Shown: in pieces, positions 1,676 to 32,835 of the stretch | Layout: each line of letters starts with the position of its first letter | Position numbering within the stretch: the stretch's first letter is position 1 | NCBI GenBank assembly: GCA_036172245.1 | Contig: JAYWIR010000001.1 | Span: forward strand, 8,060,001-8,124,000 | Origin: Raillietiella orientalis | Lineage: Eukaryota | Length of the DNA: 64,000 nucleotides | Direction: 5' to 3' | The notes under the pieces: generated by a model | What the model saw: the letters and a program-made list of their open reading frames with translations, nothing else | Told to the model about the DNA's origin: nothing | Database searches by the model: none | Translations under genes and position numbers: made by a program

Positions 1676-1689
1676 TACTGCTGGGAAGA

Positions 1690-3294: not shown

Positions 3295-3388
3295 CGCTGC
3301 CTGATCGACCACCGAACCACACGACGCTTGCACTGGGGGAGACTTCCTGGCACGAGGAGCACCGAGAAAACACGTCCGCCCTAGAGCG

Positions 3389-5497: not shown

Positions 5498-5502
5498 TTC
5501 AA

Positions 5503-8764: not shown

Positions 8765-8845
8765 CCCAGTGGACGCACTCGGGCACACCTCACACAAGAA
8801 GACGGAAAGAAATCACGCTCGAGGAGCAACACAGAATACGTCCGT

Positions 8846-9045
8846 GCGGGCGTCGTCGTCGAGCGGATTCCCGCCATCGTCGAATGCAGCGCTAAAAAAC
8901 TCGCTGCTCCCGCTTCTCAACCCTCGGTTGACAAAGTCAACAAGGGAAGCGAGGCGGCGGCGTCCGTCATCGAGCCCACGATCGATGACTTCGCCTTCGA
9001 GCGCGCCACGGAGATGGCTGCCTCGTTGCATCCGGCCAGCCCAAG
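8846..9045 (+). pseudogene. Short ORF1 C-terminal fragment of an E1-type element
   Basis: VVVERIP...PSVDKVNKGSEAAASVIEPTIDDFAFERA matches E1 ORF1 VVVERIP...PSVDSVNSEGSEPAAASVIDTTIDDVAFARA. Confidence 0.85.
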
Positions 9046-9138
9046 GCCAGTTAGAGAACGTGTTTTTCCTTCACTCCTCAAAGAGTAGTAGGAAAGCGTT
9101 TTTCTTGTGTGGTGTTTTGTGTACATCGTCGGTGTCCA

Positions 9139-11770: not shown

Positions 11771-11771
11771 C

Positions 11772-12770
11772 AACATCGCCGTCCGCGCCGACTCCATTCG
11801 CCCCGTCGTTGGGGAAGAAATCCGGCTCGAACGAGGTTCCGCAGCGGACAAGCACAAAGTCCGATTGCGCGGGCGTGTCTGGGAGCAATGCTCCTCAAAA
11901 GCCCGCGCAAAAGGACAAAAAGCTTCTCCAAGGTGCTAAAAACAAGCCCCGAGCAAAGCAGTCTGGAAAAAACCTCGGGCAGACTGCAAAACTTCCGCTT
12001 CCGTCCGCTCTCGCTCCGGAGCGAAATAGCGGTGGCACGCCCGGGAAGTCCACCGGAGCGTTGAAAAAGGGGTCGCGCGCCCCTTTGCCAGCGACAGGCA
12101 AGCCGGCCACGGCGGGCCGAACGCCAGCAAAGGCTGAAAAGCCTCGCGCGACCCGCGAGAATCCCGCCACTCTGCCCGCACCTTCCGGTAAGGAGGTGCA
12201 GAAGGCCGACGTGGCGAAGGAGACACTGGCCTCCATCGCCGTATCCGAGGCCTTGTAAAGGATGCCAAGGACCTTGGAAGCCCTCGCGCCCAACCGAGGC
12301 AAACAGGAAGGCGGCGAGGATGGCTGGACCTTCGTCGGGGGAAAGGAGCGCAAACCGCGCGATCCTTCCCACTTCACGATCAAAAAGGTAGGCGGGGTGA
12401 AGAGGCAGCCCCGCGCGCCAAGTAAGGCGCAAGGAAAAGCCCCTGCTGCCGCCGCGCGCGCCGTCGCAAACACCCGCGGCGAGAGGGGAGCTGCCGAAGC
12501 CGTGACCCCGAAAGGGGGATCGGCGACGAAGGCACCCTCTAAAAGTGCTGGACCAGATCCGGGCTGCCAGCAAAAAAAGAGGCAGGCGAAACGCCCGCCG
12601 CGCGCGCGGAATTCGGACTCCGAGGTGGAGTCCGAGGGCAGCACTAAGGCTCGCCAAGCCTCGGTCAAAGCCAGGGCTGCGCGCAAGCCAAAACTTGCCA
12701 GGAAGAGCCTGATGCCGGGAACGGTTCCCGATGCTCCTTGGAGCCCGAGGCAATGGTCCTCGATTCCACC
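11772..12770 (+). pseudogene. E2-type ORF1 C-terminal fragment inserted between the E3 endonuclease and the RT
   Basis: KKRQAKRPPRARNSDSEVESE and EPEAMVLDS match E2 KKRLAKRQSRARHSNSEVESE and ETEAMILGS. Confidence 0.8.
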
Positions 12771-15167
12771 GAGCCGGATCGTTTCAGGTTGGCGGAACCG
12801 TTCACGATGGTGGAGATCACTTCCGCCATCGCAAAGTTAAAGAAAAGGAAGACACCAGGGGAGGACGGCCTGCCCGCGGAGTTTTACCATCGCTTCGCGC
12901 CAGAGCTGGCCCCCCTGGTGCTCAGGTTAAGTACGATGATCCGCGAACACGGCGAAGTTCCCGCCTCGTTCCGGTCAGCAAAAGTACGTCTCCTGCCGAA
13001 ATCAGGAGACTTACGCAACATTGGCAACTGGCGTCCCATCACAGTAGTGAATGCGGACGCAAAGTTGTATGTCAAGTTGTGGGCTGAGCGTTTGGGGCGG
13101 GTGGCCGCTTCCGTGGTGAGTCCCGAGCAGACCTACGCTGTTCCCGGACGAACCATGGAGGCCAACCTGCTCCTCGCCAGCTCATGGTGGCAGTTGCGAC
13201 AACGCGTTGCTCAGGATGGTCAAGGGAGCCTTGCGCTTCCCTCTGACCAAGAGGATCATGCAGAGGATAGGATGGACTCGGCGGGAGCCTTTGCCGTCGC
13301 GATCGATTTGCACAAAGCATTCGACTGCGTCGACCAGGATCTCCTTCTAGAGCTCCTGGAACGCATGGGTTTCCCGTCCGTGCTCCGGTCTTAACTGCGC
13401 TCCTGCTGGCGCAACGCGTATATAAATATTGGTTTCAGCGGCCGGCACGTGTACGGCGTGCCAGTACGCCGTGGCATCCGGCAGGGTGACAGCCTGAGCC
13501 CCTTGCTCTTCAGCATCTACTTCGAGTTGGTGCTGAGGGCATACAGGGTAACTCTGGCAACTCTGCCGAGCTCCTGTGCCGGCACGCCTGCCGTGTCGGC
13601 CTATGCAAACGATCTTCTGCTGCTGCTTCCCGGGTCCACCCCGGCAAGTGCGCTCGAGGAATTCTTAGAGTTGCTGCGCCGCGGGACGGGCCTTGAGGTG
13701 AACAGGGCGAAGTCATCGATGGCTTGTGTTGGCTCGGCGTGGGCTGGACGGTCGGACTGGATCCGCTTGGGGATCCCCACGGGCAGGTGCTTCAAGTTCC
13801 TTGGCGTTCCGTTGGGGGACTTCTGCGCAGCAGAAGCCTGGTCCGACCGTCTCCAAAAGGCAGCGTTGGCGACCGTTCCGTTCCAAGAAAGCAAGTTCTA
13901 CGTGCAGGAAGGGGCCGCGGTGTGGAACGCGTTTGCGGTCCCCCTCCTTCGCCCCCTACTTTTTGTATGCCCCGCCCCTTATTTTATTCGGAAACGAGCA
14001 GCGGGCCTCCTGAGGACAGTCCTTTAGGGCAAAGGGAGGTCCCGTGTGAGGCTCAAAGACTTGTGCGCTCCACGTAAGGACGGTGGACTTGGCGTACTTA
14101 CGCTGGAGCGCATGGAACTGCAACTCCAATTCAGGACTCTCGCCCTCGCGGCCGAATTGTGGGACACGCCTTGGAGCGTTCCAGCACGCTCCCAACGAGC
14201 CTGCGGATCCGGCGGACTTTTGTCGTTTCTGTCTGCGCGCGTCTGCAGAAGAGCACACTGTGGCTCTATGCTGCGACGCATCTTCGTTGCGGTTCGGGAG
14301 AACGCCTGGATCTCCTGCCTCCCAGGGAACTACTCTGCCTGGTTGCACGAGTCAGTCTCCACCTGGGAAAAGATCTACGTACCGGCGGGCACAAGGAACA
14401 CTTGCCTGAAAAGGCACGCCCGCTGGACGCTGCAGGAGATCGTGCAGTCCCACGACAAGCTTCTGTGGGCCTTGATAACCCCCCTCGCCCCAGTGCTGCG
14501 CTTCCATGTGAATGCCAGGGACAGTAGCGAGCAGGGGAAATGGACCGTGTCCTGCACCATAGTCGGCAGGACACAATCGATAAAGGCGTGGACATCTCAG
14601 CAGCTAGCTGACGCTGCGACGCCGAGTGTCCCGCGCAACGGAATTCGACGCTGGGGCGAGCTACTCGGACTATCTCCGGAGGAGATGAAGTGGCCCCCAG
14701 CGTCCTGGAACAGTGCATCCCTCCCCCTGAAATGGTAGGATGTGGCGTTGCTTGTGGTACTCTGGGGATTACCATTCAAAGCACGCCTGCACCACACCAC
14801 CCGGGGGGCTGTGGATCCTAATTGTGACCGGTGTGGGGAAAAAGAAACATTCCCCCACCTTCTCCTTGAGTACAGCGCCCTCCGCCCTTTGTGGGATCGT
14901 CTCGCGGCGATCCTGGACTTGCACGGATGCGGCGCAAAGGACGTTTTAAGGCGCCTCTTCTGTAGTGACGCCTTGTCCCCGCCCGCTAGGGTAGCAGTCC
15001 TCTGCTGCATCAGAGGAATAGTGGCGGCTTGGAACGGCACCAGAAGAAGGCGTCAGCCAACCGGCAACGCCTTACACCGGATTCAGCTTTTCGCGCGCAG
15101 TGTCTGCAAGTGGCGCCACTTAGGCGCTGAAAGGACTCAGCTTGTGCGGATCCTGAATAGGATCTAG
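12770..15167 (+). pseudogene. L1/Tx1-like ORF2 RT to C-terminus with in-frame stops and YADD changed to YAND
   Basis: PGEDGLPAEFY, NWRPIT, IDLHKAFD, GIRQGDSLSP, YAND, DGGLG, CDRCGEKETFPHLL; stops at 13394, 14027 and 14738. Confidence 0.93.
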
Positions 15168-15392
15168 AGGACCTGTCCACGCGCACCGTGATCCCTTCCC
15201 CGTCCTCCCACCCCTACAACATTTGTTCCCCCCCACATTTGAACTTTTTGTTTCTTTTTGTTTTTCTTTATTTCCCATCCCCGCGCATCGGAAGGACCTC
15301 TCCAGCATGGAGCCGCTAACCAGCAAGCTGTTTTGGAGTGGTGAACCTTCGGGTTCGCCATGCGACATTTCGATGTAATTTTATTTCAATGA

Positions 15393-15416
15393 AATAAATG
15401 CCCCGGCACATCCGGG
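15393..15416 (+). terminator. Family 3'-terminal signal AATAAA + CCCGG-CACAT-CCGGG
   Basis: Homologous to 5474-5497 and preceded by a GAACC-TTCG-GGTTC hairpin at about 15343-15356. Confidence 0.7.
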
Positions 15417-15429
15417 TGTGAATCGCCAC

Positions 15430-16444
15430 GGCGCGCGCGAGGACGGACGTGCTTTTGTGGTGCTCCGCGTTTTTCTCGCGAGTGGTCTCTGTGTTTTAGG
15501 TTTGAGCGGTTGTTCCTGGGCAGAGATGCCCGAGGACGCCGCCAAGACGGCGGAGGGGGGCGAGCGAGCCTCGTCCCCCCAGCCCATGTATGGGGGGCAT
15601 CTCCCCCACGGAATCGTCCCCCGCCCCGGAGAGAGCTTGGAGCGCGGTGGTGGCGGCGCCTGCGCCGCCCCCCGCAGAGGGACAGAGGGCGTATATGGCC
15701 GACGGGTACAACCCGGCCCTGCTTTATAAGGTAGGTGGCCTATACTCCCCCGCGGTCTTGCGGTCCTTCGCCGCGGAATTCAAAAAGTTAAAAGTCCCGG
15801 AGGAAGAAGTCTTTGGGCTTTCGGTAAGAAGTGGCGGGCAGCTTGTTGAGCTAAACTGCAAGTCTGCAGGGATGGCTAAACAGCTGCTCCGCCTGCCGGT
15901 GAGCGTGAACGGGAGAAGAATTTTCCCGTTCACGGCGGACAATTCCATCGTTGTCCACCTCACCGGTATAACCATGCGAATGGCAAAGACCGCCGTTCGC
16001 AAAAGTCATGAAAAGTTCGGGACGGTCCACGTGTTGTGGGCAAAACCCAATCTCCTGGGTTACACCAGGGCTTTTAGTGGTTACGCCGCTGCCCGCGTGA
16101 CCGTCCGAACCGAGGGTGTGCTACCCCACAGACTACAGGTCGGAGAAGAGCATATCGACCTGTGGTATGTGGGGATACCCGTGTACTGCGGCTTCTGCCA
16201 GGTGTCGGGGCTCCTGAAAAGAAAATGCCCCAACATCGTGTGCCTATGCTGCGGTGAGAAGGGACACATCAGGCGGATGTGCCCCCAACGCAAGAGGCCC
16301 GTTCGAGTAGGCGAAAACAAGGAAGTGCCGAAGGAACAGGGCAACAGCCAGCAAATGGTAGAGTCCCGCCCTGCCCCCCAACCTGCTCCTCAGTCATCCT
16401 CCAGCACCGAACCAGCTGGAGAAAAAGACGAGCGTTACCCGTAA
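15430..16444 (+). pseudogene. E4 5'UTR and ORF1 (ATG 15526, frameshift near 15590), truncated at the viral cluster
   Basis: GGACGTGCTTTTGTGGTGCTCC 5'UTR motif; RAWSAVV, GYNPALLYKVG, CGFCQVSG..C, CLCCGEKGHIRRMC. Confidence 0.88.
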
Positions 16445-16625
16445 AGATAAGGAAAATAATGAGCACATGCAATACGGCTTCATCGAAAGTTCGAAAAATG
16501 TAATCACTTCTGATTCCATATACCAGGGAAGTCTCAAATACTTTCAGCCTCTTCACATTATCTGCTTTGCTAATTGGCAGCCTGACTTCGCAAAACTTTC
16601 CACTGACAGATGGATCATTCATAAC
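16445..16625 (+). pseudogene. rep: Endogenous CRESS-DNA virus Rep 1, C-terminal SF3 helicase fragment
   Basis: QYGFIESSKN...YQGSLKYFQPLHIICFANWQPDFAKLSTDRW contains motif C and the arginine finger; homologous to the three other Reps. Confidence 0.85.
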
Positions 16626-16976
16626 AACTCCTCTACAAGCATCAGCAAAAGGGTTCCTTGGCAAATTGGACAAGGAAGCATTCTCCCATGGCCTGTTTCT
16701 TCAAGTTCTAATATAGAAACAGCCCCTGACTCGCCTGCTACCTCATCAATATCCACACCTTGCGGAGCGTCACCCGCATGCGCCACAGAAAACGAGTTTG
16801 CCTAACCTTTGAGGTAACTCGCCTCAATGTTGGAAGCCAATTCGTGGATTTCCTGCCGCCCATTAAACTATAATGATTGGCAGCTAGAATCTATTGAGTT
16901 TTCGGCTGCATTTTAGGGAATCAGTCCCGAAGATCTTCTCCCCCTGCGTCAATTTCAACCTTGGTCACTCCAAGAT

Positions 16977-17471
16977 GTGATGCAGGACGAGATGAATAGA
17001 GGGTCAGATAACTGCGCAATCTGGGTAATACTGACCAGATTGCGCAGTTATCAGTCTAACTACGCAGTTAAATTTGTTGATATGAAGTACAGTGATCGCA
17101 TGAAGAATTTAGCTTGGCATCAGAGGAAGAGGACTTCCTTTTTTTATAAATTTAAAGAAAGAGATGTGTCTGTGTACTGTAGAAGTTGTGTTGAAAAGCA
17201 GTCTGTAGTGACATCTAAGGGTGATTCTGTGATATATTATCGATCTAAATGTCCTTGGCTTAGTACTGAAAAGCAAACTGAAATGAGCTCTTATGTGTTG
17301 ACTGGTCATTCTATAATAGCGAAGCATGTAGTGGGATTCAAGGTTCCAGCTGAATGGACTCAACAGAAAGCTATCCAGGAAAATAATGTTATTCAAAAAA
17401 ATGCTCCAATGTTTAGAATTTGGAGAAAATTTTATTCGCAATTCAAAGGGCTTAGGGATATAAGATATTAA
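16977..17471 (+). CDS. Putative CRESS/circovirus-like capsid protein (C-terminal part)
   Basis: Lies between Reps. KCPWLST and terminal FYSQFKGLR resemble C-terminal motifs of circovirus-like capsids (recognised from memory, not searched). Confidence 0.45.
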   Translation: MMQDEMNRGSDNCAIWVILTRLRSYQSNYAVKFVDMKYSDRMKNLAWHQRKRTSFFYKFKERDVSVYCRSCVEKQSVVTSKGDSVIYYRSKCPWLSTEKQTEMSSYVLTGHSIIAKHVVGFKVPAEWTQQKAIQENNVIQKNAPMFRIWRKFYSQFKGLRDIRY

Positions 17472-17640
17472 CGTCCTGAAGAACACATACTACTTATTGG
17501 ATATTTGGTTGTTCTATTTGATTCATTAATGAAATGCACAATCCATCTGTCTGAAAACATCTTTTCATAATTTGGATCTGTGTTAGTATATAAGCCACCA
17601 AACATCCGATCCACAGTCACACCATTAGTGAATTACCAAC

Positions 17641-18560
17641 ATGCCTTATGAATTTTTTTTTCAATTGATGCCTTACATTGTATAACTACTCCGAAAACTT
17701 CAGAGCTATCAAACAATGGTGCAGATGCAACTGCCACTTTGCCTGTATTGGCAGAGAAACGGCAGATACCGGTACACCGCACTACAGGGCTACTTGTTAT
17801 TGAAGGAACCGAGGAGAATGCCTGGTTTGCACCGAAAGCCTTTTCACAAGTGTCACCTGGAAAAGGCAAAAGGTTCACCTCAGAGCAACCTGAAGTACTG
17901 CACCAAGCAGGACAAAGAAGCATGGGTTTACGGAGCACTGAACGAAGACGCAGAAGCAAAAGCTTATGAAGAACAAGCAAACTGCGTAGTTGACTATTTC
18001 AAGGTCATTTTCTTTTCAGATCCTACAACTCATCGAAAATGGCGCAGGCGAACAGTTCATTCTCAAGCACCATACGAAGTTTTACGCAAAGAACATCAAC
18101 TTTACAAAAGAATGTTTCCGATTATCCCGCAGCAGAACACATCCCGACCCACTCGCTCATCTTCAGCTCAAAGAATGGCAACTTAAAATCTTAGACATTA
18201 TACGACATCAACCTCACGAGAGTAAAATATATTGGTTCTACGACCCAGCTGGTAACGCCGAGAAGAGAAGGATGGCCAAATTTCTCTTCCTTAAAAAAAA
18301 GGCCATCTACATGCATTCCTGCAGGAAGGCCGATGCGGTATATCTACAACGGAGAATTATCTCACTGACTTCACCCGGGACAACCAGGAACATGTGCAGT
18401 ATGGATTCATAGAAAGCCTAAAAAACGGTATCATCTTCGACGGCAAGTATCAAGGCTCCATTAAATACTTTGAGCCACCACACATACTGGTTTTCGATAA
18501 TTGGGAACCAGACTACAACAAAATGTCAACGGACAAAGACGGATTATCAATAACATCTCC
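17641..18560 (+). pseudogene. rep: Endogenous CRESS-DNA virus Rep 2, full length and frameshifted
   Basis: Motif I CLTLYNY, II TP(H)LQGY, III YCTK; WFYDPAGNAEK (decayed Walker A), DFTRD, YGFIESLKNG, GKYQG, PHILVFDN. TATATAA at 17587. Confidence 0.92.
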
Positions 18561-19055
18561 AGTAAATCTCTTTCCAAGAACTGACTGCTGCAAAATGAAC
18601 CTTAATGTAGGCCCAATCAAGGGGAGCAGACAAAGTCTTAACTTATATTCGTTTCTATACTTAGCTGCTCCTGGGGAAAGTATCATGGCTAGGTATCAAT
18701 CTCGAACAAATCTGGCCCAGCTTGTATCGACTGTCAACGCTACAGCCCCTAATGTCACAGCAGAGGGTTTACCTACTGCCCTGACATTAGGGGCCTGACA
18801 TCCATACCTTGTCCGACTGAAGACTGTGTTCCCATCCACTGCTACTGAACTACGAAACAGAGACGAATCTGACAGGTCGCCTAGCAAGCATTCCTGGGGC
18901 AGTCACTTATGAAATCATCTACTTCTGTGAAACGTACGGAATTTAGAACCCGATACAAGATAACCGGCAGCCCGAAAACATGCACTTGTTATCATTGGCA
19001 TGCATAGCAAACTCCAACTTCTAACTACATTTCCGAAAATGCTTGCGGCGCAGAA

Positions 19056-19084
19056 AATTCCTGCTAGCGTCGCAAGCAGGAATT
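19056..19084. repeat. Imperfect hairpin AATTCCTGCT-agcgtcgca-AGCAGGAATT upstream of Rep 3
   Basis: 10-bp perfect arms read directly from the sequence. Confidence 0.7.
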
Positions 19085-19279
19085 GGCTGCATCCTTGCAT
19101 AAGCGTGAGCATCAGAATGTGCAGATACAGCGCCTTCGTGCTGCGCGAAAGCTCCTGGTGTGCTTGCTAAATTGAAAAACGTCTAACACAAGACGTAAGT
19201 AGTGTTCCCCATTTCTGCATCACCCTATAATACCACCTTTCCCTCTCTGGTTCATCGAAACATCCAACAAATAGCAGAA

Positions 19280-19830
19280 CAACCCGTAAGACTCAACACC
19301 TACAGGATATAGTGTACAAAACCTATACTTGACCTAACAAGAATACTGCAGAAAACATAGCTAGCCCATTCCAGTTCGATGAGAGGTTAGTGGTTCAATT
19401 GTTCGTCGAAATGGGTATCATCACGATGGAGCACCATCAGAATCAACGTCTCCTTGTGATCATATCGATGCAAAGAACCAAACCAACGTGATATGCACTG
19501 GTACGCTGACTACCAGGAAAACAGCGGAAAAACCATTATTGCAAAACACATCTACATAAACTACCATGCGATCTACCTAACTGCAAGAAAGCAGACTCAT
19601 CCTTCATGAACAACGTAGAAAAAGGTAGAAACGTCATCATGGACTTGACTAAAGGCCACGCAAGAAACAGTAAACTATGGACTTATTGGAACCATAAAAA
19701 ATGGTATATGCTCTATGAAATACCAAGGGCACGTAAAGCTTTATAATCCACCTCATGTCATGGTATTCGCAAATACAGACCCGAACTACAAGATGTCGTC
19801 TGACATTTGGATTGTTCACTTCATTACTGA
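19280..19830 (+). pseudogene. rep: Endogenous CRESS-DNA virus Rep 3, internally deleted
   Basis: HLQD and YCRK remnants; WYADYQENSGKT (Walker A), VIMDL, VNYGLIGTIKNG, KYQG, PPHVMVFAN. Confidence 0.85.
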
Positions 19831-20000
19831 ACACAATAAGAACAAATTATTTTATAAATCTGGAATCAAAAGTACAAGCCGCTGATATCGTACATTAAAG
19901 AGATGTAGTTCTACATCCCGTAAAAGCAAAATAAAATCCTGTAAATAATCCAAACAAAGTTTACTTTTTTTAATTTCCAGTATGGGAAACTATTCCAGTT

Positions 20001-20056
20001 TTTTGTCGGTTCTCACGAACACTGACTAGATTCAGTGTTCGTGAGAACCGACAAAA
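20001..20056. repeat. Perfect 25-bp inverted repeat with 6-nt spacer CTAGAT
   Basis: Arms TTTTGTCGGTTCTCACGAACACTGA (20001-20025) and TCAGTGTTCGTGAGAACCGACAAAA (20032-20056). Confidence 0.97.
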
Positions 20057-20566
20057 TGTTCATGCCTTGCTATCTATGAACAGCTATTGCTTATCTAAAA
20101 ACCCATTGAGTAGTACCTGAAGCGACATATAAGTGTTGATGCCAGTCCAGCTACATAAGCAACGTTTACCCAGTACCATTTAGATGAAATGGAACTACTG
20201 TGCCTCCATGGACTGTACAGTCTGTTTCTGTATGGTGTTATGCACACTCGTAATGCTGATGGAGAAAATGTTGATGTTGATTGCAATCTCACAGCTGAGT
20301 CAACGGCATTTACTCATAATCAAGTTTCACGTTTGACTACTAGTACCAAGCAGTGGACTAAATAGGTGTTCATATTGCTCCTATCCACCAAAACATTATT
20401 TCAACAAAACATTATTTGCAGTATCCATCTAGCGGGTTCCTATCATCTATCCTAAAACCAGTCATAAGAGGGGAAACCAATTGGGGTTCATAACAATCTT
20501 CATACTAATGCCTTTTAGTCTGACAGGTGTTTAATTGAAAGTGACTTGAGGCAGTAATTGCTCGAT

Positions 20567-21305
20567 ATGGCTGACCAGTTTGAGCAAGAAGCTGAAACCA
20601 ATTACGACCGATTCTCGGCAGCTTTGCCAGAGCTATCGAGCTCGGTCAGACAACTGACACGGACATTGCGTTGCCAGAAGACAAAAAACTCACCCGTATA
20701 CCTGCCTACCAACCAAAGTGCGTTCATAAAAAACGTTGCAGCTTCCGCTATTGGCTGGTTATACCAGTCCAAGTATTGGAAAGATGCAGCACTCACTCTT
20801 ATGATAAACGGTATATATGCGCTATTCACATATGACATGATAAGATACCGAAAAATTAACCAGCACTTGGTGCCCGATGGAGATTGGCGCCCAACTGGGA
20901 ATAGACGAGATGACAAACGCACAAAGTACAGGAGGCTTGGCACAAATCAATAAACAAACAGCAGTGAACTGTATGGTTCTAGTGATTGCGACAAAAGTCT
21001 CATGGTGGTTGACGAATCACCATGTGGACGTGCGTAAAGATCAAACCAAAGGAGCTGGTTTTCCGCTCAAAGTGTGAAAAGCTCTGTTCGACAAAGTCAC
21101 TATGTCGGATGAGCGAGGTATGGAGATAGCCTACACCTTAGGGCATTATTGTAGCACCCTCCGAATTTTGGAACTAGCAGAGATGCAAGGCATATTGGAA
21201 TCCTTCGGGATAGGAACAGTTGGTGCACCCCCTAAACCTGTCACAATCTCGCAGGATGCCTTGATGAGATTTCAGTCTCCTGCTGGGACTCATCGCCCAC
21301 ATTAG
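20567..21305 (+). pseudogene. Probable endogenous qinvirus-like (-)ssRNA virus nucleoprotein, disrupted (the frame may extend back to about 20100)
   Basis: Ordered blocks IATKVSWWLTNHHV, GFPLKV, TLGHYCSTLRIL and DALMRFQSPAGTH match my recollection of the qin-like N signature ATKxxWWxTNHH...GHWxST...DAxLR..PAGTH. No introns. Confidence 0.5.
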
Positions 21306-21408
21306 AAAACAAACAAGAAAACCAAAGGAAGACTTCCCGACGACAAACTAGACCTACCATCCCAATGATCATAAACAGTTTTATTGCCAATTAAAATTTC
21401 TAGTTACT

Positions 21409-23250
21409 TTAAACAAAAAATTTCATCATACACTTTCGATGAACCCTCCATCGTCGAGCCTTTTTTGTTTTCAGAAGCCCTTTAGCCATTGATTCATCAA
21501 CTCTCCACGACTTCGGGTCGGTAAAGCCGGCAACATGCCTCACCAAATAACGTAAACTCCTAGTATTCACTTTCACCTCCATGCCACTATCAGTGTCAAA
21601 TCGAGGACACTTTAGACGAACAGCCTGAGAACCACCTTCCATCGTTCGAACCACTACCACCCGAGGAGTTGCATACATACTCCTACCACCCGACCGAACA
21701 CTGTTACAAAAACAATGAGCCTATACTTTTAACAGATATAAGAATAGTGTGATATCATTAGCACACCAACTCAACACATCGTGGCTGCGGTTTCACCATA
21801 CAAGCTTCTCAAGATTCTATACCCAATTCTGCACTCGTTAGAAAAATACTTCTCCACTGCGCGCCCTACATCCGGAAGCAGCGCAGATCTACAATCCAAA
21901 ATATGTTTATTGGCTATCTTCGCGGCTAACACCTCTGCCACTTCTCTACACATTAGAATCACGTCTGCATCCATAGAAGTCACTCAGCGTCTGAACAACC
22001 TTGCTTAGGCTCCACTCGATCTATCACCTTCGTTACAATAAGTTGTTCTTTTTCTCACTTGCCATTCGAACTGCCACGTGGGAAACCTAACCATGAATCA
22101 TACATTGCTTAGCTCTACACCTTGTCACCATGTCTTTTTACGCAGCCACGATTTCACTCCTTTTTCAGACTCGAAATATTTTTTCGCAAATTGTATTCTA
22201 TCCAAATATTCCAACTGCGGCAATGAGCGACCCAGGTTTCTGGAATGACGACACGAAAATCCTTAAACCTAGCACAGCTTGGTCGATGCTCTATACCACG
22301 ACACAAAGCTCCTTCTCACCAACATTCTAAATAGCACAGTATCGTTTAGGATTCTTTGGAAACTCCACAAAAATAGTTATGAAATTTTCATCAACAGTCC
22401 TCTGCGTGCGCACATCCTGGTCCACCGCTTTCCAAGGTATTATAGACAACCTCATTTCATTAGAACAGAAAACGAGAAATCTACGTGGGGCGGTGAAAGC
22501 AGCTAGGGAAATATGCAAACATTATAACAGCACACAAAGCACCAGGCTTCACAATAGTTGTCGATGTGCTGTTCTAGTACCTATTCCCCTCAAAAGGACG
22601 CAGCCCAAAACTGAATCGAGCTGATCACATGAACAATGAAAGAACTTTGCTCCTAGATATACTCCTGATTTCTTCAAGCAGTACATAACACCTTCTTTAC
22701 CCACCTTTGCGTATTTTCCGTATTTAATCACTCCGCTCTAGCTTGCAGATTCCAACACAGCATTCTGTAACAAACGAAACACATATTTTATGCTACGGAA
22801 CGCTTCCCCATCGGGCAACATTCCTTCCAGCCAGATCCCAACCGGCGAACGAAAAGCACTCATTCTACCTCCTATTGTCAAAGCAGACTGGAATTGTTCG
22901 ACCAAACATAACGCTTTTCTTCCGCCTTCATCGTGTTACGACCAGATATTTCCAGGAACCTCAAGTGCTGCATTCGACCACCATACAACGCAGGTTTGTT
23001 GCCGAGATATTTCCAAAGCCGCCATCGATTCCTTTACCTCTACAAATTCATTTCGGTGACTAACAACGCATGTGCACTTCTCACCGTCTAAGACCGACAC
23101 TTCACGTTAGCAAAGGCTACGAATTTCAATCAGCGCCCAAGGCAATCAATCACCTCCACTTTTCTAGCAAAGCATCGCAACGCTCAAAATAGCAAAATGT
23201 GGATTCTGCACCTACACATTCAACACAGGAGCTAGGAATCAAGGGATCCA
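21409..23250 (-). pseudogene. Long intronless decayed ORF (about 600 codons) of unknown, possibly viral, origin
   Basis: One frame reads from about 23100 to about 22050 with scattered stops, then continues via frameshifts to the stop at 21409. A minus-strand AATAAA lies at 21380-21385. Confidence 0.45.
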
Positions 23251-23507
23251 TTAACAACCTACGTATTTGGGTGTCGACAAGCTCAGATTCGAGCTACGAT
23301 GCGCACAACTGAACTCCACTTTCAGCAGCCCTCGAAATTTCCCACAACCTACACATTGCGCAACATTGCTGCTTCAACTGAGGAGTTGCTATGGTATGAT
23401 CTCATGATGCATAGTTGCCCAACGTTCAGCAGCATGCAAGTCACGAAAACCCCAGGCCCATGGCCATCTACAAGTAAATAACTCGATGCGCAACCTGCTA
23501 AACCAAA

Positions 23508-23533
23508 TTCCTTACAGGCTAGCCTGTAAGGAA
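23508..23533. repeat. Perfect 26-bp palindrome centred on CTAG
   Basis: TTCCTTACAGGCT|AGCCTGTAAGGAA. Confidence 0.95.
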
Positions 23534-23788
23534 AACAGCATCAAAGCATCAACAGCATATTCTTTTGCCAATGAAAGCTTCCTGGACTTGAAGTGAACCA
23601 CCATAACACCACACACCAATGACCTTATATGGGGACTGCAATTCGAGTGCAAGAGGAGTGAATTCTACTCCAATCAACTTGCCACATGTACTAAGCTGTG
23701 GATAACAATACTGATAACCACCTGGCCACCGAAAATTTGTATAAATACTCACTATGCACACCATGCTTTTCAGAAGTACGCAAAAAGC

Positions 23789-24690
23789 ATGCTTTACGCA
23801 CGTTACCCAAACTGGTGCTTCACCATAAACAACTGGACAGAAGATGAACTCACTCGCGTCAAGCAGTGGTGCAAACACGCAACCTTCGCAATCATCGCGA
23901 AGAAAGCAACCACTATCGATACGCATCACCAGCAAGGATGCATGCAATTGCATGAACCTCTCATGCTGCCGCAAGTGCGAAGACCGCAGCTCAAGCGCTC
24001 TCACTTGGAGCACGCAAGAGGTTTAGCCAACGCTAACCTTCAATATTGTGAAAAAGATATGCATTCATGCAACACTCGACCAAAACCCTAACGACAATTA
24101 CGAACGCCGGGTAAGAAAGCAATACACTCGCATTAGTAACATCTCTTTAGTCCAGATACTTCGCCTCATACAATCCGACAAATCAGAAAATTTTATCTTG
24201 GAAAATTATACAAAATTTTATTCAAGGGACATTCAGTTCATCAAGGAGTGCTTTGGCCTCTACAGAGCGAAGCACTTCCCGAACCCAATGGCGATTCTAC
24301 AGTTACGGCAGTGGCAACACAAAGTTCTGAATATACTCTCCAAACCACCACATCACCGAGAAATATACTGGATCCTGAACGAACGAGGAAACGGGGCAAG
24401 CCTACGTTGACAAAATATCTCTTTCTCAGACGTAACGCAATTTATCTAGAAAGTTGCAACAAGAGCAACGCAGCCCATAATGGAGAGCCCATAATAGTCA
24501 TTGACTTTACAAGAGACAACCACAAAACCATTCAATACGGCTTCATTGAGTGCTTGAAAAACGAAATCATCTTTGATCCTAAATATCAATAAGATACTTC
24601 GACACTCCACACGTCCTAGTTACGGCCAACTGGGAACCAGACTACATCAAACTAAGCACTGATCGATCGAAGATCATCAATATAACTAGC
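23789..24690 (+). pseudogene. rep: Endogenous CRESS-DNA virus Rep 4, full length and frameshifted
   Basis: WCFTINN (I), HQQG (II), YCEK (III), RGN/GK (frameshifted Walker A), IVIDFTRD (Walker B), YGFIECLKN, PHVLVTAN, LSTDR. TATAAATA at 23740 and AATAAA at 24765. Confidence 0.93.
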
Positions 24691-24784
24691 TCCAGCAGAA
24701 AGAAACCTCCTTCATTATGGAGAATGATGGCAACATTATCCTATATGTCAAACCAATAGAAAGTAATAAAGACAACTAAATTAA

Positions 24785-25800
24785 TCAACTTCTTTTTATT
24801 AGCACAGCACCTGCAGCTCTCCAAGTCGCATTAGCCTGCCTAGCTGCATCTCTGCTTCCTCTAAACAAAAAATATTTCTTTTTCACATGGTACACCAACA
24901 TTCCTGCTTTCAGAACTCCTGTGTCTGGACATACTGCAGACTGACAATGTGCCTCAAAATCATCAGGTATATCCTGACCAGATATATACTTCATCAATGT
25001 TACATTTTCATAGCTGGCACTGACAGTTAACTCACCACTCAAATTATTTATTATATTATTGTGGAATTTGGAGCAAAGTACTCGAAGCCAACACTTGCAC
25101 ATCCCCTCATCCATGCTCGAAACCATTCAATACGTAATTCACCTTTCCCATCAGTTCTTGGATGCAATTCCTACTACACTACACCCCAATCATTATCCAC
25201 GTCACCTTCCACTTGACACCCTCAGCCACCAGACATCATCTAAGGCAATGAAGTAAGACACTTCCTTATCTCTTCTCAAGGAACTGATTATGAACTGATT
25301 ACCCTGACCCATTCCGATTTGGAACTGCAACTTTAAAAGACAGCAAACACAGATAACCTTTAGGTGAACTTCCAAGTGAACAGTGCACAACCACAGCACT
25401 CACCATTTCCCTAACTGTTGCCAACTTTGCACTTTGCGGGGCTTGTTCTAAATGCGTACTCTTTTCAAGAGCGTTTTCCATGAAAAAGGAAATAGAAGCG
25501 CACCCGACATTTCCGTATCATGTCCAAGCAGCCCTCACATCAAACAGGATGTCATCTCACATGAATCTTTCCTGGAGACACTGCAACACCAGATGTCGCT
25601 TTCACCAAGCAACATGCATGGTTACCCAACCCTGTGTCTGGATAAGTGTGCATTACAAAGCAGTTCGGCCAAATGCACATCCCTGTACTGCACATCTCAT
25701 AAACACAGCGAACCCTGCTGTCACAAAGCATGGGATGAGCAAAAACCCTGCAATTCTCAATACTTTCACAGTGCTGCAAAAACAATTCTAGCATTTCCAC
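24785..25800 (-). pseudogene. Decayed unknown ORF convergent on Rep 4
   Basis: Series of minus-strand ORF pieces ending at 24785, with minus-strand AATAAA at 24795-24800 facing the Rep 4 AATAAA. Confidence 0.35.
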
Positions 25801-28800
25801 AACCTCTCCTACTGAAATCTATTACCTGCCCAAGTCTTACTGAACCATCTAATCAAAAGAATCAAAACCTCAAGACTCACCTCTTCTTTTTCCATCCAAG
25901 GACTCTTCTTTCAAGAATCAGCCAGCAAAACGAACAGCAGGACGTGTTAAGAGCACAGCAAACGTGCTAGGAGAAACCAACGCAAAACGCACTTCACAAA
26001 TTCGGTAATTCCCAATTTTTTGCGTTTCCATGGCTGCGAAACAGCGACATTCCATGTGACTGCTCGCTTTAACCCCTTCCTTTATTCCATATTACTTTAA
26101 GGGAAACCACAAGAATTCCGGCACTCCCTTCTTTCCAGATTCACACAGAAACTTACAAAAGAAAAAAAAAACTACTTACTTTGCCATCTACTGAGCACTG
26201 CTAACCGCGCCTTTCTTCAGACATCGAACATCACCCTATTAACAATTCGAATGATTCCATGCTTTGCCACGTTACGACTCCAGCATCCACACAACCTTCA
26301 GCCACAACTTTTGTCCGCAGCCACATTTCTTCACGGTTTCCAAATCGAAAGTTGCAGGAGCTTACACTCTGCAGCTTACGCTCGCACTTCACCTTTCCAT
26401 CATCCACTTCACATCGAATTCAGTTCTGGAATGATAACGGAAGAGCTCCCATGCACATCCGTTCCGCAACGACTTCCACCGGCAAGCGCATGAGCCAACC
26501 TTCGCTCTTCCGATTCTTCCGGTGCGCTTCAAGATGTGCATTTCTACGCAAGACCGCTAACCCAATGTCCAGTCACAAAAAGTTTAATTTCACAGCAACT
26601 TTTCATTGCACACAAACATTTAAAGCATGAGCTGGAATAACGGACGTCACAAGCTATGCAAGCTGATTATGTATATTCAATTCAGCTCAAAATACGGGTG
26701 GAATTAGAGCAGCAATGGATGAATTCGGCACGAATATCTTGTTAATTCTGATAAAAGCAACACCGGAATAAGTTTAAAACAAGGTTTCTGTATCCAAATT
26801 AGGCGTAACACGCACAGATATGGAAATCAATTAAGGAATCTTCACAGAGGTAATTGACTGCCTATGTTGTCTACAGGACATTTCCCTTCCTGCCTTCCCC
26901 TGATTGCACACTTCCTAAATGCCCCAATCTTTTGTGCCTCAAGTTCAATAAGCTTCGCGTGACGATAACATTTCAGAGAATTCAATGCAACCAAATTGAT
27001 GCTGCGTTCTAAATCTGCGCAAGCAAGTTTCCGATAAAAGTAACTCAGGCAGTGGATTCGAATTCGCTTATTGGTTCGCTCTTCCCAATGTCCGCTGTTA
27101 CCTCTCCTTGTCTTTTGCTTTAAGTTCTGCCTCCTCTGAACGGCATGTGCTGAGCTCTTGCTGGAGTGTGAGAACGCTTACTCACACGGGGCTTGTGAAG
27201 TGCTTCGAAACCATATGAGCTCTCCAGCTGCTCTCTGGCTCAACCATCACGCGATATGCGTTGGCATGTGTCGAAGGGTCAGAAGCACCAACAACAAAAT
27301 TAAGAGATCGCCATCTCCTTCTTCGGACCAATTCCATGTTGATCCATGGGATGCGCATGCTTGCCCCACTACTCAAAGATGGACGCCACGTACCAGCAAT
27401 GCGTTCCCGCATACCGTCTCGACTGCGTTCCCGAAAGAGGAATCGCTTCGGATAGCGCAATGGGTGCTGGCAGGGAATGAAGACTGCATCGGAGGATTCA
27501 GCGCGCACGCGTGCTAGTGCACGCAAGCAGTGGTGCTGCTGCAGACGCTTCCGCTTCCATCGCACCCCCCGCATTGCTCAGCTGCGCATGCGCCTCTTCG
27601 CTCCGCACTAGCACGGATGCACTGCAGAGTGTGTGCGGCGATGAGATGGAGGCAGACATGCGAACGACAGGGAAAGTTCCGCTTCCTCAGACGGGCTCTC
27701 CGATTTTCATCTTCCTCTCAAACCATGCTGCCTGCTCGTCTTTCGTGGCCGCTATTGCCACTTGGTGGACCCGTGCGAGCGTGGCACTTTCGACGGACGC
27801 TCCAGAAGCCAGATGTTGCCCTTGCAGTGCGATAAACAAAAGGTACATCTGATTCATCCCATGCAATGGAACATTTCCTGTGCCTCTAGCATTCTGGTCG
27901 CATTTTGCTAACTATATCTGGATCCTTGTAGCGAAAACAACCCTATGCAATCGCGACCAAAGACCAAAGCCGTACACACAGCTTTCATTTTCAGCCTCTC
28001 CCGAGCGCTGAAATGGCGAGGTCATTTTCACCGCCGTCATCAACAAGGCGGAACTCTATGGAATCGTTTCAGTCGCAAAAAAGGAATGATAGCAGAGCGT
28101 GACAAAAAAAATTCGTTTTCTTCTCTACCACCGCGACGCCATGGAGACGAGTAAGAAATCCTTCTTTTAGAAGGAGTACACTTCATAATGGCAAGAGAGT
28201 TCGAGTTTCTTATGCTTTCCGTTGAAAGGCTCCCAAAGAATGTCCACTCACCTCGCAAATCTGTACACCGCGCATTGGATCGCGAAGAGTAGTCTCCATG
28301 CGAGATTGAAGACATCGGATCAATGCAATGGATTTTTACCACTCTTTGAGAATGAAAGTTTTGTTCACAAATTCATTCTTCAGAAGAGCACTGGCATTGC
28401 AAATATCAATATACATGCAAGGATATCACTATACACATGCTCACATCAATACAAATACAGTACATACATGTGGACAATGAGCAACACATATCGGCATCAG
28501 CGTACAATATGCCTGTGAAATACCCAAAGTGTACTTTTCTGTTTCAGGTTTTTGAAACTCCACAGTTTTTCTTTGCTCAACTTCTCATCGGTCATGTGAC
28601 TAGGTCCATGACTCTCATCGAAGACAGTTTTCACATGCCAAGTGCTATCGCCGCTTTTGAGATAGCCTTCATGTCATTGAAGGTATCTCCATCCGTGCTT
28701 CCATTCTATCGTCACACCGGTAAACTGACTTCTTTCTCCTTTACTCCCTGATGTCTGCAATGAAATGGTACTTGTGGCGATGCACGAGCCGCTGTTTCGA

Positions 28801-31800
28801 ATGTTTTTTATGGATTCTGTATTCTTTTTGCCACTTTGTTTCTCACTTTCTGGGGAGCTTTGCAAAGGTACGCAATCCAATCGATCCTGTCTGTTCAAGT
28901 CGCAAATCCATTCCTCTTTCTACATTCATGAAATGTTGAACTAATAAAAAACCTACTGGCGATGATCCCGCTTCCTGAGGAGATTCCGATTTGGAACATA
29001 CAAACAAGCTTTCAATCCTATATTACAAGTCCCACCAGTTTGCTTTTTGAAACATTTCATGGAAGAAGCCTTTTCAACCATTCCGTAAATCCACTCGGTG
29101 TGAAGGTGCTGATTAGCAACGCAGAAGGTGTCAGCATGTGTTTGCTAAAGCAAAGCTTCTGCTATGTACAGATTGCACGTGTACATTTCGAAGAATGTGC
29201 AGTCCACCTCAAAATTGAAAGGTGCATATGATATGCCGATGAATATTATTTCAAGCACATGCTTGCGTATCAAAAGATTGTCAATTGGACGCCAACACGG
29301 CAGAAGGCTTCTGCTGCCTTCTGCCGCTGCTGGAAAGTTCTGACGTGCAGCTCGCCTTTCGTGTTCCAGTGGCACAGTTTGCAGCACGAGGGGTTTTCTG
29401 CCACTCTTTGACAAGGAAATACATGAGAAACATGCCACCCCAACTGATGCTCGGATGCAGCCGTGGTCATAAGATTGGCCACACGTCGGACCGATTCCAA
29501 TGCACCAACCGACTATAATGGCGGTGCTCGGACTCCACACTTCTGGTTTTCTGGACTTTCCGCTTGGAAACGCCACTGCACCTTTTAAGGTGATCTTCGC
29601 AGCACAGTTCGATCAAGTGCGTTTTTAGAAGAACAAATGCGTAGAGAATGGGAGCGGTGGAAATCGAGAATCCCGTAGAAGTGCCTCGGGAAAACAATAC
29701 AGTGATAGTGTAAGCGCAAAACCTAAAATGGAATGATTTTGAAACGCTGCAGTGCTGAAATTCGAAAAATTTTCGAATGATCAATTCTCAACCCATTCGC
29801 TTTCTTTTATATATCTCCTCCAAAGAACAGGAAGCAGCGAAAGTTTCTTTCGAGGAGTCACATGGTTGCATGGCTCCGGGCGTGCAACCAAACATCGTGT
29901 CTAATCTCCAGTCAATGCAAAGCTTCGAGATCATTTCTTATCGCATCTAAGGACCTTTGTGGGCTACAAACCACGCGGAACAAATCGCATGGTGTTGGAC
30001 CTGGCGCAGAATTTACTCGGTGCTTGTTTCCATCACCAGGACTTACTTATCCGGAAAAAGGAGCTCACCTCCGCACTGACTGCCAAAGAATAGTGGTCCA
30101 CAAACAGCACCGTTCTCCGAATGGACCGCACGTTCCTCTTCTGTCTGCAACTCCTATCGCAACGTACATTGTGTGCATCACTCTGTGGTGCAATGCCGCA
30201 GCAAACCGAAGATGCTTTTGAACTGGCCGTCAGAACATTTCACGAAATGGAATTCGCGCACCAATCCGCAGTCTGTATCCAGTTTTGTTGCTCATGTCCC
30301 AAATGAACACGTCGCGGTTCGCTTTTCTAGTATAAGCTGCACATGATTCGGAGGTCCGCATTCTGCTTTCTTGTGAACTTTTCCTATATTTTGGGGAAGG
30401 ATCAGTATTAGGATTCGCAGACACTGGAAATGCAAGCTGCTCTCGGATCCTCCATAACACCGTGGACGCCTCCGCAAGTTGCCACCCACAAACGATCGTG
30501 CGCATCCACCGTGCAGTCTCACGGAACTTCTCGCTTTCGACTCACTTTTGAAGGATCCAGTATCTCACAGTCTCAGAGGCACAAAGACCTGGGGGTCAGG
30601 TCGCCTCCAGCGATTTTCCTTTTCTAGTGATTCCTCCGTCTCGCCGTCTAGACTGCCCTCGTACCTCAGGGAGATTATTTTTCGCAATGGACCTCCTTTA
30701 GGGAATGGAATCTTTCCAAGGCTCCAGCAAATCTCCTTCCATTCCTCTGTGCGGTGCTTCTGGCGATATGCGCAGCTCTCCTGCCACCGACCAAGCTTCT
30801 CGACGTTTCGTGTCGCCTTTTCACTCGCCTCTGCCTATTTCCCTGAAGTAGTGACTTCACGCCTACCTCTTCCCCAAGTGATTGCGTGCTCCGCTGGCCA
30901 TGGGAACGCTTCCTTCCGTTCCGACGTCGTTTTCCGCCTCCTCATGGCACTGGTTGCGCAGCAAAACGCTTACTGTTCCATCTTGAACGGCTCTTTTCTT
31001 TCCGGGTGCGGCCTCGTTTTTTTTGGTCTTTGATTTGCTTTGTGCCACTCTTCGTGGGTTTCCAATCACTATATTGCAACGAGAACATTGTAGGGGAGGA
31101 ATGAAGCTTTCATCCTTGTTGCTTTTAGATTGGCCTCAATTTCCTGCTTTCTGGTCGTTCGGCGAATCGCTAGGTGTCCTTGTGACGGAAAGGGCTGCCT
31201 CTCGAAAGAGAGCAGGTCAGGTGTGCATGGGATCGTTCTGCGAACTCCGTGCATGACCCACGGGCCACGCCACGAATCGGGAAGGCGTCACCCGGATGAT
31301 GTGGATTCCCAGGGTGCACTTGAGGTTTCCTTGGATATCCTTCCTTCACGCAAAAAACAGAGGCAGACAAAGAATTTGCTTGCAGGATGCATCTCATCGC
31401 GCGTCTCTTGAGCCGCCTGAGGAAGGATGCCATCGCGGCGGGAGCTGTTTCTCTGCGGCGTAGCAGTAGAGGTTCCCGCGTGGATCTGGAGTAATGAGAT
31501 AGGTGGCAGCCGGCTTTGACCGGATTTCTCTCGGTTCGGGAGCGAACAAGCCAGAAAGGAGCGACCGGAAGGGCATGGGAAATGTATGAAAACCTTTTAA
31601 CGCACTTAAACGCACAACCAGAAGAAACGCGTGCAGAGGTACCTGCATCAGCCGTGTACTCAAGTAGAAGGAAGAAGGGTTTACCCTTCTTCCTTCTACT
31701 TTCTTTAACCCTTCTTCCTTTTCTCAACCACTACCATAGCAACCAGGATTTTGATCAATACTGTAGTAACTTCATTTCAAACACGGAAGGAAACGTGGCT

Positions 31801-31877
31801 TTCCCTATTCCCACTCGTTGCAAAATTACGTTGCAAAAAATTCAAGCACTCCATGAATAGGAAACATAAAAAATAGA

Positions 31878-32835
31878 GTCCCCGCGTCGGAGGTTTTGTG
31901 ATTAAGGCTTCCGCGTGTGGCACCTATGCGTCGCGGGTTTGAATACTTCGGCAGAAACTCTGACGCTACTGCGTCGTCGAGTTCCGAGTTTCTCCTGCAA
32001 CGGCGCTGGTTGGCCTAATCATTCGGACGTGGCACCGGTGGTGGATTAAGCCGGAGGCCCCCGACAAAGTCCGGAACAATGGGAAATTGACCTTCGGGTC
32101 TTCCAAGGAATAAAGGAGTGGGGAGTTCCCCCTCCGGTCGTACAACGGAGAGCGGAGCCCCCACTGGGGGACCCCTCCGGTTTCAAGATGGAGCAGAAGC
32201 CCTCACGGGCACCTCTCCAGTTGTTCAAAGGAGCAGACCCTCCCTGTTGCGGGGAGGACCCTCCGAGTCGTCACCCCTTCACAGAGTGCACAAGGAAGCA
32301 AGCGATAGCGATTCCCCTGTGGGAAGCTGCAGCGCCCCTTCAGGATTCTCTTCAGAGGAGTGAACAGGAGCGGTTCCCTTGCGGGTTCCCTCCGGAGAAG
32401 AAATTCCTACAAGTGGATCCTTTCCGGGTTCCCTCCGGAGAAGTTGAAATGGAGAGGACCAGCCCCATTACGGATGGTATCCTTCCGGAGAGAATGAGGA
32501 AGGAGATTCCCTTCCGGTTTCCCCTTCGGCGACAACCAGGGTGGGAGGTACAATCCCCCCGTCCGGGGAGAGTTCCTCTCCAAGCGTGAGAGGAACGGAC
32601 TCCGAGCCCTTCCTGGATTCATAGGGCGGACCCCCTCCAGGGGTGCCCCCTATCCTGAAGAATTACACGTCCCCCTGCAGGTTGCCGCGGGCGGAGAGGC
32701 ATGGAAACAAAACAGTGTATTTAATGTTTAAAAAGAGCCACGTGCACCGCGAGGCACGCGACCGGCTCTGAGGTACTTAGCGAACCAAAAAAAAGAAAAC
32801 TCTTAAAAAAAAAAAAAAAGCTGAAAAAAAAAAAG
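31878..32835 (+). mobile_element. SINE-like element with tRNA-like (possibly dimeric) head, CCCTCCGGAG-rich body and A-rich tail
   Basis: B-box-like GGGTTTGAATAC near 31935; ends GTACTTAGCGAACC+A-run; collinear with the minus-strand copy at 52900-53665. Confidence 0.6.

Follow-up and report, generated by a model that had tools for sequence, protein, structure and literature searches.

A probable cluster of endogenous CRESS-DNA virus Rep fragments joined to LINE sequence in Raillietiella orientalis

The locus described here lies in a stretch of 64,000 nucleotides of Raillietiella orientalis DNA (assembly GCA_036172245.1, contig JAYWIR010000001.1, positions 8,060,001 to 8,124,000, forward strand), which was analysed as a whole and is called the window. 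It holds broken copies of the gene for Rep, the replication-associated protein of CRESS-DNA viruses (those whose circular single-stranded genome encodes a Rep), together with pieces of long interspersed nuclear elements (LINEs). The window divides at ~16.44 kb. Positions 1-16444 have ~60% GC and contain several divergent LINE copies on both strands, with open reading frames (ORFs) for LINE reverse transcriptase (PF00078) and endonuclease (PF03372) within 350-14024. From 16445 onward the GC content is 36-47% per 500 nt, which is the level of the window outside the LINE pieces farther right. A first-pass annotation of this DNA had described a viral block directly abutting LINE DNA, and the junction is indeed sharp: the last position of a LINE ORF1-like frame is 16444, and homology to Rep starts within ~15 nt of it. 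The pieces concerned are listed below in window coordinates, with the Rep pieces placed on a hidden Markov model (HMM) of 70 reference Reps.

15506-16444, plus strand: LINE ORF1-like frame carrying CCHC knuckles, the LINE piece nearest to the block on its left; similar to 9634-9926 and 2534-2811, with a weak zf-CCHC match
16431-16700, plus strand: Rep1, Rep fragment from the 3' end, comprising the final ~70 codons (HMM 234-302); E 3.4e-14 at 16449-16655
16797-16898, plus strand: LINE ORF2 piece of 102 nt within the viral block, facing the same way as the ORF1 piece; 4340-4441 is 72.5% identical to it (E 2e-12)
17007-17052, minus strand: CRESS-type origin hairpin, perfect 18-bp stem (17007-17024/17035-17052) and 10-nt loop TCAGTATTAC
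17465-17597, minus strand: Rep5, last ~40 codons of a Rep, closest to the 3' end of Rep3
17669-18600, plus strand: Rep2, near full-length Rep pseudogene, HMM 13-286 in four stretches
19472-19885, plus strand: Rep3, Rep reduced to its C-terminal (P-loop) half, HMM 175-302, N-terminal half missing
23789-24705, plus strand: Rep4, full-length Rep pseudogene, HMM 7-300 in four stretches, ATG at 23789

Rep sequence is confined to these places. In a tblastn search of the 64-kb window with 95 full-length Rep relatives, plus-strand homology was found only at 16461-16619, 17669-18537, 19475-19849 and 23798-24699. The Rep HMM, run on each of the 2199 six-frame segments of 15 or more amino acids in the window, marked the same four plus-strand places and a marginal minus-strand match at 17504-17587, and none besides. 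Its E-values reach 8e-29 for Rep4 and range from 8e-11 to 9e-15 for the pieces of Rep2, and all fragments are colinear on the model. The Pfam family Viral_Rep (PF02407) was matched by the Rep4 region at 23597-24088 with E 4.5e-9 and 36.9 bits (cut-off 26) and by the Rep2 region at 17686-18183 with E 2.8e-5 and 24.7 bits, just under the cut-off. Among protein structures, the Rep nuclease domains 7kii and 2hw0 were matched at 6.9e-7 and 1.7e-4. Four mutually divergent Reps, all on the plus strand, had been reported at first; the four plus-strand places stand, with copy-to-copy identities of 58-66% in nucleotides and 42-61% in amino acids, and the uniform orientation does not, since a fifth piece lies on the minus strand. 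This piece, Rep5, shares 74% nucleotide identity with the 3' end of Rep3 (19772-19845; tblastx E 1.5e-5), its HMM score is marginal (E 0.078), and ~70 nt lie between it and Rep2. Together the five pieces lie within 8.3 kb, and the spacing of the copies is irregular (1.3-4.9 kb). Four of five on one strand is a chance-level outcome (two-sided probability 0.375).

The state of each copy was judged by reading all three frames and mapping every open stretch on the HMM. None of the five contains an intact Rep ORF, each being broken by frameshifts, stops or truncation; they are pseudogenes and fragments, not genes as had been supposed. Rep1, a truncated piece, has no internal stop or frameshift. Rep2 changes frame three times (near 17782, 17991 and 18355) and carries a stop codon at the site of a Trp that is conserved in relatives ahead of motif I. 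In Rep3 the frame is interrupted by three stops between 19600 and 19649, and the GKT of Walker A is retained; Rep4 changes frame near 24090, 24395 and 24590. The Rep motifs I, II (HUH/HUQ) and III (YxxK), as defined in the available part of PMC10288648, occur in order in both larger copies, as CLTLYNY, PH and LQG (one motif split by a frameshift) and YCTK in Rep2, and as CFTINNW, HHQQG and YCEK in Rep4, where motif II is degenerate. On the Rep HMM, each of the four plus-strand copies reaches the C-terminal half, with Walker A degenerate or split in Rep2 and Rep4. This P-loop half is presumed, as in CRESS Reps generally, to be a superfamily 3 helicase; neither Pfam nor a 20-sequence profile searched against PDB matched a helicase family in the reference Reps.

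The differences among the copies are concentrated at third codon positions. In protein-guided codon alignments, Rep2 and Rep4 differ over 259 codons by 0.41/0.30/0.62 at positions 1/2/3, with a proportion of nonsynonymous differences (pN) of 0.33 and of synonymous differences (pS) of 0.90. The remaining five pairs show the same third-position pattern, and synonymous sites are saturated among the copies (pS 0.78-1.03). For a neutral control, the Rep2 pieces were randomly mutated 200 times to equal divergence and passed through the same pipeline, which gave 0.39/0.39/0.41 at the three positions and a third-position ratio averaging 1.05 with a maximum of 1.36, versus 1.75 observed. Most of the divergence therefore arose under purifying selection, while the sequences were working genes, which speaks against decay of one duplicated insert; it fits several distinct viral sources and agrees with the earlier argument against tandem duplication, the Reps not being a recent series of this kind. 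Nucleotide self-comparison revealed no similarity between the copies beyond their Rep parts, and at the protein level nothing else is repeated in the block. A tandem concatemer of one viral genome was also considered and is ruled out by the 58-66% identity, the spacing of 1.3-4.9 kb and the absence of tandem arrays.

In a tree of 74 rows (the 70 reference Reps and the four plus-strand copies), the copies form one clade with an SH-like approximate likelihood ratio test (SH-aLRT) support of 93 and a stem of 0.71, Rep3 being basal. The sources would therefore be several related viruses of one lineage, and the term 'multi-virus' in the broad sense of the first-pass annotation is too wide for the locus, which has yielded neither an RNA-virus gene nor a capsid gene. 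Rep1, Rep2 and Rep4 are 45-63% identical to one another versus at most 40% to any reference. In a set of 1.84 billion representative proteins, 896 relatives were detected at E<=1e-3, the best of them 39-43% identical over the nuclease domain, and most of the ten best Rep relatives sit on contigs of 0.5-3 kb. A word-indexed homologue search with the N-terminal piece of Rep4 found no relative among longer proteins, and an IMG/VR pattern search found none for the C-terminal piece of Rep2. With the nearest database Reps at 33-43% identity to the window copies, the source lineage is one without close sampling in the databases searched. One near relative (P0005 / P0153, cluster 5) is found on a 140-kb contig instead of a 2-kb circle, and the motif that normally reads HLQG is HHLQS in it; this relative is probably also an endogenous Rep, in the genome of some cellular organism.

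The viral character of the locus is further indicated by the hairpin at 17007-17052, in which the nonanucleotide NAGTATTAC is presented in a stem-loop, as in a CRESS origin of replication. The sequence AGTATTAC occurs only once in the 64 kb, inside the loop of this hairpin. The fold has a z-score of -8.23 and none of 200 shuffled sequences folds equally well. The word CGCAGTTA forms part of the 3' arm (17043-17050) and is repeated 13 nt on, at 17063-17070. A TATTAC loop on a stem of at least 7 bp is present in 67 of 80 related viral contigs from IMG/VR, where the loop TCAGTATTAC is the commonest (8 loci). Read with Rep5, which is on the same strand, the order is that of a circovirus-type genome, namely Rep 3' end, 413 nt and origin, the intervening 413 nt being insufficient for a capsid gene. 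Read with Rep2, the origin is on the opposite strand, as in L002, L003 and L006 among the nearest contigs, with 545 nt of other sequence between. The hairpin may belong to either. Exogenous CRESS-DNA viruses of ~2-2.5 kb (the IMG/VR contigs L001-L080, relatives of P0064) thus share Rep architecture and origin loop with the window; they possess an intact Rep and a second, arginine-rich ORF, whereas the window has broken Reps and no detectable capsid gene.

Two other origins for a group of Rep-like sequences in a nuclear genome can be weighed here. Replitrons also bring an HUH-Rep endonuclease into eukaryotic genomes, with a weak link to CRESS Reps, and according to the available part of PMC10288648 their transposases have no fused helicase domain. 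The Reps of the window have a C-terminal P-loop half (HMM 175-302) and an accompanying nonanucleotide origin hairpin; because they share the C-terminal half with viral Reps, they are not Replitrons. A second account would make the copies a host paralogue family, in which one old Rep capture served the host, was duplicated in place, diverged under selection and died later in all its members. Such a family could well form one clade lying side by side on one strand, and purifying selection is also what a working host gene would experience. It is nevertheless very unlikely, given that two copies are bare 3' fragments, one of them on the opposite strand right against Rep2, that a viral origin hairpin is present, and that saturated pS values would require a very long working life followed by the near-simultaneous death of all copies.

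The surroundings place the block in a eukaryotic genome. In a four-copy alignment the LINE ORF1-like frame at 15506-16444 is cut off inside ORF1 relative to the other copies. Because the LINE ORF2 piece at 16797-16898 lies inside the block, LINE and viral pieces are interleaved, and this is an argument against a plain mis-join at 16444. For the LINE reverse transcriptase, neighbours in the Atlas are eukaryotic and mixed (Chordata, Basidiomycota, Arthropoda). What had been called a LINE array is no recent tandem array; it is an accumulation of LINE families that are old and divergent. LINE pieces occur also at 51.6-59.4 kb; the copies at 1-16444 and 51620-59445 have ~56-64% mutual identity and lie on both strands.

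To the right of the block there are two host-like exons on the minus strand. One, at 53599-54117, resembles CLN3 (battenin; PF02487, E 1.3e-7, just over the cut-off); in the minus-strand frames of 45 or more amino acids at 36.6-53.6 kb no other CLN3 exon was detected, and a word-indexed search found no homologue of the exon among longer proteins. The other, at 43103-43255, corresponds to the start of pepsin-like aspartic proteases (PF00026, E 1.2e-9) and matches fungal and animal enzymes alike. It has DTTM at the place of the DTGS active-site motif of yeast proteinase A and, to judge by this replacement, may be an inactive paralogue or pseudogene. A weak Cation_efflux match (PF01545, residues 71-113, E 3.8e-4, below the cut-off) at 28356-28748 on the plus strand may be a host exon or chance. 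Since LINEs and the CLN3-like and pepsin-like exons share one contig with it, the block belongs to a eukaryotic nuclear contig. Within the assembly, disrupted viral sequence with LINE DNA to its left and inside it and host exons to its right, on a single contig, is the arrangement of an endogenous viral element. An assembly artefact, in which a viral or foreign contig was mis-joined to host DNA, could be suspected from the fall in GC from ~60% to 42-45% at a junction that no piece of the one available DNA run spans. It is extremely unlikely, because frameshifts and stops disrupt the Reps as would not be seen in a live contaminant, the block includes a LINE piece, its low GC is that of the remaining window apart from the LINEs, and host exons are found on the same contig.

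Between the Rep pieces little else could be recognised. The further features of the block are the following.

16980-17471, plus strand: frame of 163 amino acids (129 from an ATG at 17083), between origin hairpin and Rep5 3' end
18745-18794, no strand given: imperfect hairpin with 24-nt arms, 83% complementary, without the nonanucleotide, ~150 nt downstream of the Rep2 homology
20001-20056, no strand given: perfect 25-bp hairpin with loop CTAGAT, ~115 nt past the Rep3 stop, unique in the window
20558-21302, plus strand: run of open frames (131 amino acids, then 77 and 75 in a second frame split by one stop) of no detectable family
21500-26630, plus strand: G-poor, C- and A-rich block with a GC skew of -0.16 to -0.36; it contains Rep4, and its non-Rep parts have no recognisable content

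A Pfam scan at E up to 0.1 took in every stop-to-stop ORF of 50 amino acids or more, 20 of them overlapping 16300-18650 and 145 overlapping 18600-32000. Viral_Rep was the only meaningful match in these 20 + 145 ORFs, the rest being at chance level and below cut-offs, and no capsid, RNA-virus or host-like gene was among them. The absence of host-like genes from the block, as first described, is thereby borne out. The RNA-virus-like gene that had been proposed alongside was not recovered by any search of the block, and the proposed capsid candidate was not supported by Pfam, by 285 related viral ORFs, by homologue and Atlas searches or by the predicted fold. The 163-amino-acid frame stands at a capsid-gene position but is too short for a capsid; it has no Pfam match, no homologue in a word-indexed search and no Atlas hit (recognition 1910), and AlphaFold2 gave a predicted local distance difference test score (pLDDT) of 32 with no confident fold. 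A putative capsid ORF of contig L004 matched 20636-20776 by tblastn at E 0.002 among 285 queries, which is chance level. A short motif shared by 21396-21421 and 24848-24873 was likewise taken as chance, being A-rich, present in two copies and 81% identical. In the 64 kb, Rfam at gathering thresholds detected no family and ARAGORN no tRNA. Around the block there are no long terminal repeats (LTRs), terminal inverted repeats or tandem arrays; within it no target-site duplications, nested insertions or transposable elements (TEs) of other classes were seen, and no poly(A) tract follows any Rep.

The strand-asymmetric composition of the right part of the block calls for separate consideration. The block had been given an end at 25950, whereas the composition continues to ~26630, and in the non-Rep parts of 21500-26630 the G fraction falls to 0.145-0.163. 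At conserved Rep columns, 45 unambiguous single-base replacements could be read in the window copies, with 18 G>A and 0 C>T on the sense strand; corrected for opportunity (75 vs 36 sites), the binomial p is ~9e-4. In 74 related exogenous contigs the mean Rep-sense GC skew is 0 to +0.08 and the lowest value -0.21, in contrast to values down to -0.36 in the window block. From the skew of the exogenous relatives and the G>A changes at conserved Rep sites, it follows that the bias arose when function was lost or afterwards. The minus strand may have been deaminated as virion single-stranded DNA (ssDNA), as first-strand cDNA, or as the non-template strand of antisense transcription. An APOBEC-like context was looked for and not seen (GA and GG observed/expected 1.00 and 0.97). 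The CpG observed/expected ratio is 0.26 in an AT-rich stretch at 38000-40000, versus 0.74-0.80 in the block (17600-26500) and 0.73-0.93 in other sampled stretches, which suggests that CpG loss is uneven across the window, possibly through methylation. The right edge of the G-poor block adjoins repeat-like DNA, as two signs show: the 23 nt at 26917-26939 agree at 83% with 16223-16245 in the knuckle region of LINE ORF1, and 27047-27564 is covered by contigs of run X1 at a depth of 3.5-4.7, above that of the block.

A strand bias of this kind would be accommodated if the block had arisen by LINE-mediated chimeric retro-insertion, with the reverse transcriptase switching template between viral transcripts and LINE RNA and the first-strand cDNA being deaminated before second-strand synthesis. 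Such an origin would account for the mRNA-sense placement on the plus strand of LINE ORF1, Rep1, the LINE ORF2 piece, the 163-amino-acid frame and Rep2-4, for the sharp LINE/Rep junction with a LINE piece inside the block, and for 18 G>A against 0 C>T. The 163-amino-acid frame with its antisense Rep tail is also what a convergent capsid-side transcript would leave. Origin hairpins of CRESS viruses and their flanking repeats are normally untranscribed or lie upstream of transcript starts, and yet they are included here. Neither a poly(A) tail nor a target-site duplication was found, the LINE piece comes from the 5' part, which LINE copies usually lack through truncation, a 10-kb composite would be long, and the depletion of G has no GA or GG context, so that this route is regarded as quite unlikely. 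A precedent for the association itself is known from carnivores, in which circovirus-derived elements were fused to LINE-1 and amplified with it (PMC6372831, available part). In those elements, as in the window, Rep is fused to LINE DNA; a single insertion was amplified to 10-20 copies, whereas the pieces of the window differ from one another.

The association of several divergent viral sources with interleaved LINE pieces in one 10-kb stretch can also be taken to suggest a serial-capture locus, that is, a TE-rich cluster resembling those of PIWI-interacting RNAs (piRNAs), repeatedly taking in viral DNA and transcribed antisense to the Reps for antiviral small RNAs. All large Rep pieces and the LINE pieces are sense on the plus strand. 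A minus strand rich in G and T has the polarity expected, from transcription-associated mutation asymmetry, of the non-template strand under transcription antisense to the Reps, and the composition of the block would fit this. In Aedes, endogenous viral elements lie in piRNA clusters with retrotransposons, and these clusters, like the window, have viral fragments of several origins beside retroelements in repeat-rich DNA (PMC5497376 and bioRxiv 10.1101/127498, available parts). The same sources describe RNA-virus fragments, LTR retrotransposons and measured piRNAs there, in contrast to the DNA-virus Reps and LINEs of the window. Against repeated trapping, the one-strand placement of four of five Rep pieces is not significant, only LINE and Rep sequences are recognisable, the larger copies have decayed similarly (three lesions each) without an age gradient, and target-site duplications, nested insertions and other TE classes are lacking from the block. 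No measurement in this analysis supports a serial trap or a piRNA source, and such a locus is considered unlikely. It is slightly more doubtful still that the block is a one-strand archive of one ssDNA-virus lineage, filled by several intakes and yielding, now or formerly, a small-RNA precursor by transcription antisense to the Reps; that the uniform sense orientation, the G+T excess of the minus strand and the G>A-only replacements are footprints of long-term germline transcription would be equally doubtful.

Taken together, the locus is probably a cluster of endogenous viral elements in which fragments of at least four distinct, related viruses of the Cressdnaviricota have been joined to one another and to LINE pieces, all of them dead. 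The pieces would come from different viral genomes, either of co-infecting relatives or of the components of one multi-component virus. They may have come in at the DNA level, through illegitimate end-joining where a break lay within or next to a LINE, on one or a few occasions, and the copies would later have decayed neutrally to a similar degree, with about three disabling lesions in each larger copy. This course, from capture at the DNA level to decay, is favoured because the origin hairpin is included and no poly(A) tract follows any Rep, because the pieces abut with little or nothing between them (~15 nt at the LINE/Rep1 junction, ~70 nt between Rep5 and Rep2), and because the larger copies hold similar numbers of lesions. 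The locus encodes no working protein, and any present role, for example as a small-RNA source, would be hypothetical.

Several observations weigh against this interpretation of the block as a cluster of viral elements or narrow what it may claim. In a comparison with 285 ORFs of the 80 related viral contigs, the arginine-rich capsid-like ones included, no significant match was obtained outside Rep, and with no capsid gene found, the pieces cannot be said to make up whole genomes. For ~6 kb of the block (18.6-19.4, 19.9-23.8 and 24.7-26.6 kb) no origin can be recognised, and this part is possibly not viral at all. The SH-aLRT support of 93 for the clade belongs to an unstarred branch of a quick search in which Rep1 and Rep3 fill 21% and 34% of the columns, and Rep3 is as near to some references (40-41%) as to Rep2 (41%). 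One DNA sequencing run, in which 6% of the sampled words occur and which may be the source sample, contained no piece across the 16444 junction; its depth was 13-42 on the LINE parts and 0-1.3, in patches, on the block, and it is uninformative on absence or expression.

Endogenous circoviral and cressdnaviral elements have been described as frameshifted or stop-ridden Rep insertions in eukaryotic nuclear genomes, mostly of rep only, and in some cases with a capsid gene or, in cyprinid fish, as tandem genomes (PMC6372831 and PMC10193959, available parts). The window has the same kind of broken, Rep-derived insertions in a nuclear genome; it differs in having five pieces from at least four divergent sources within 8.3 kb that are not tandem repeats of one genome. 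With its preserved origin hairpin, the cluster is denser than the cases described in the available parts of PMC6372831 and PMC10193959, and it is the same kind of object.

That Rep-derived fossils of CRESS-DNA viruses are widespread, that most are rep-only and that some are tandem genomes or fused to LINEs is already known from the portions of PMC6372831 and PMC10193959 available. Fossils of this kind link metagenomic viruses that are otherwise without a host to a host lineage. The present locus would tie an unsampled Rep clade, with at most 43% identity to any of 1.84 billion representative proteins, to this eukaryote, and would show that several members of the clade met the germline of the host. 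A dense patchwork of LINE and viral sequence is a useful case for asking how ssDNA viruses enter chromosomes, by end-joining or by LINE reverse transcription. The strand-asymmetric G-to-A bias, if upheld, would be a record of ssDNA deamination at entry or of later transcription from one strand. If the archive interpretation were true, heritable immunity based on endogenous viral elements would be extended from RNA viruses to CRESS-DNA viruses.

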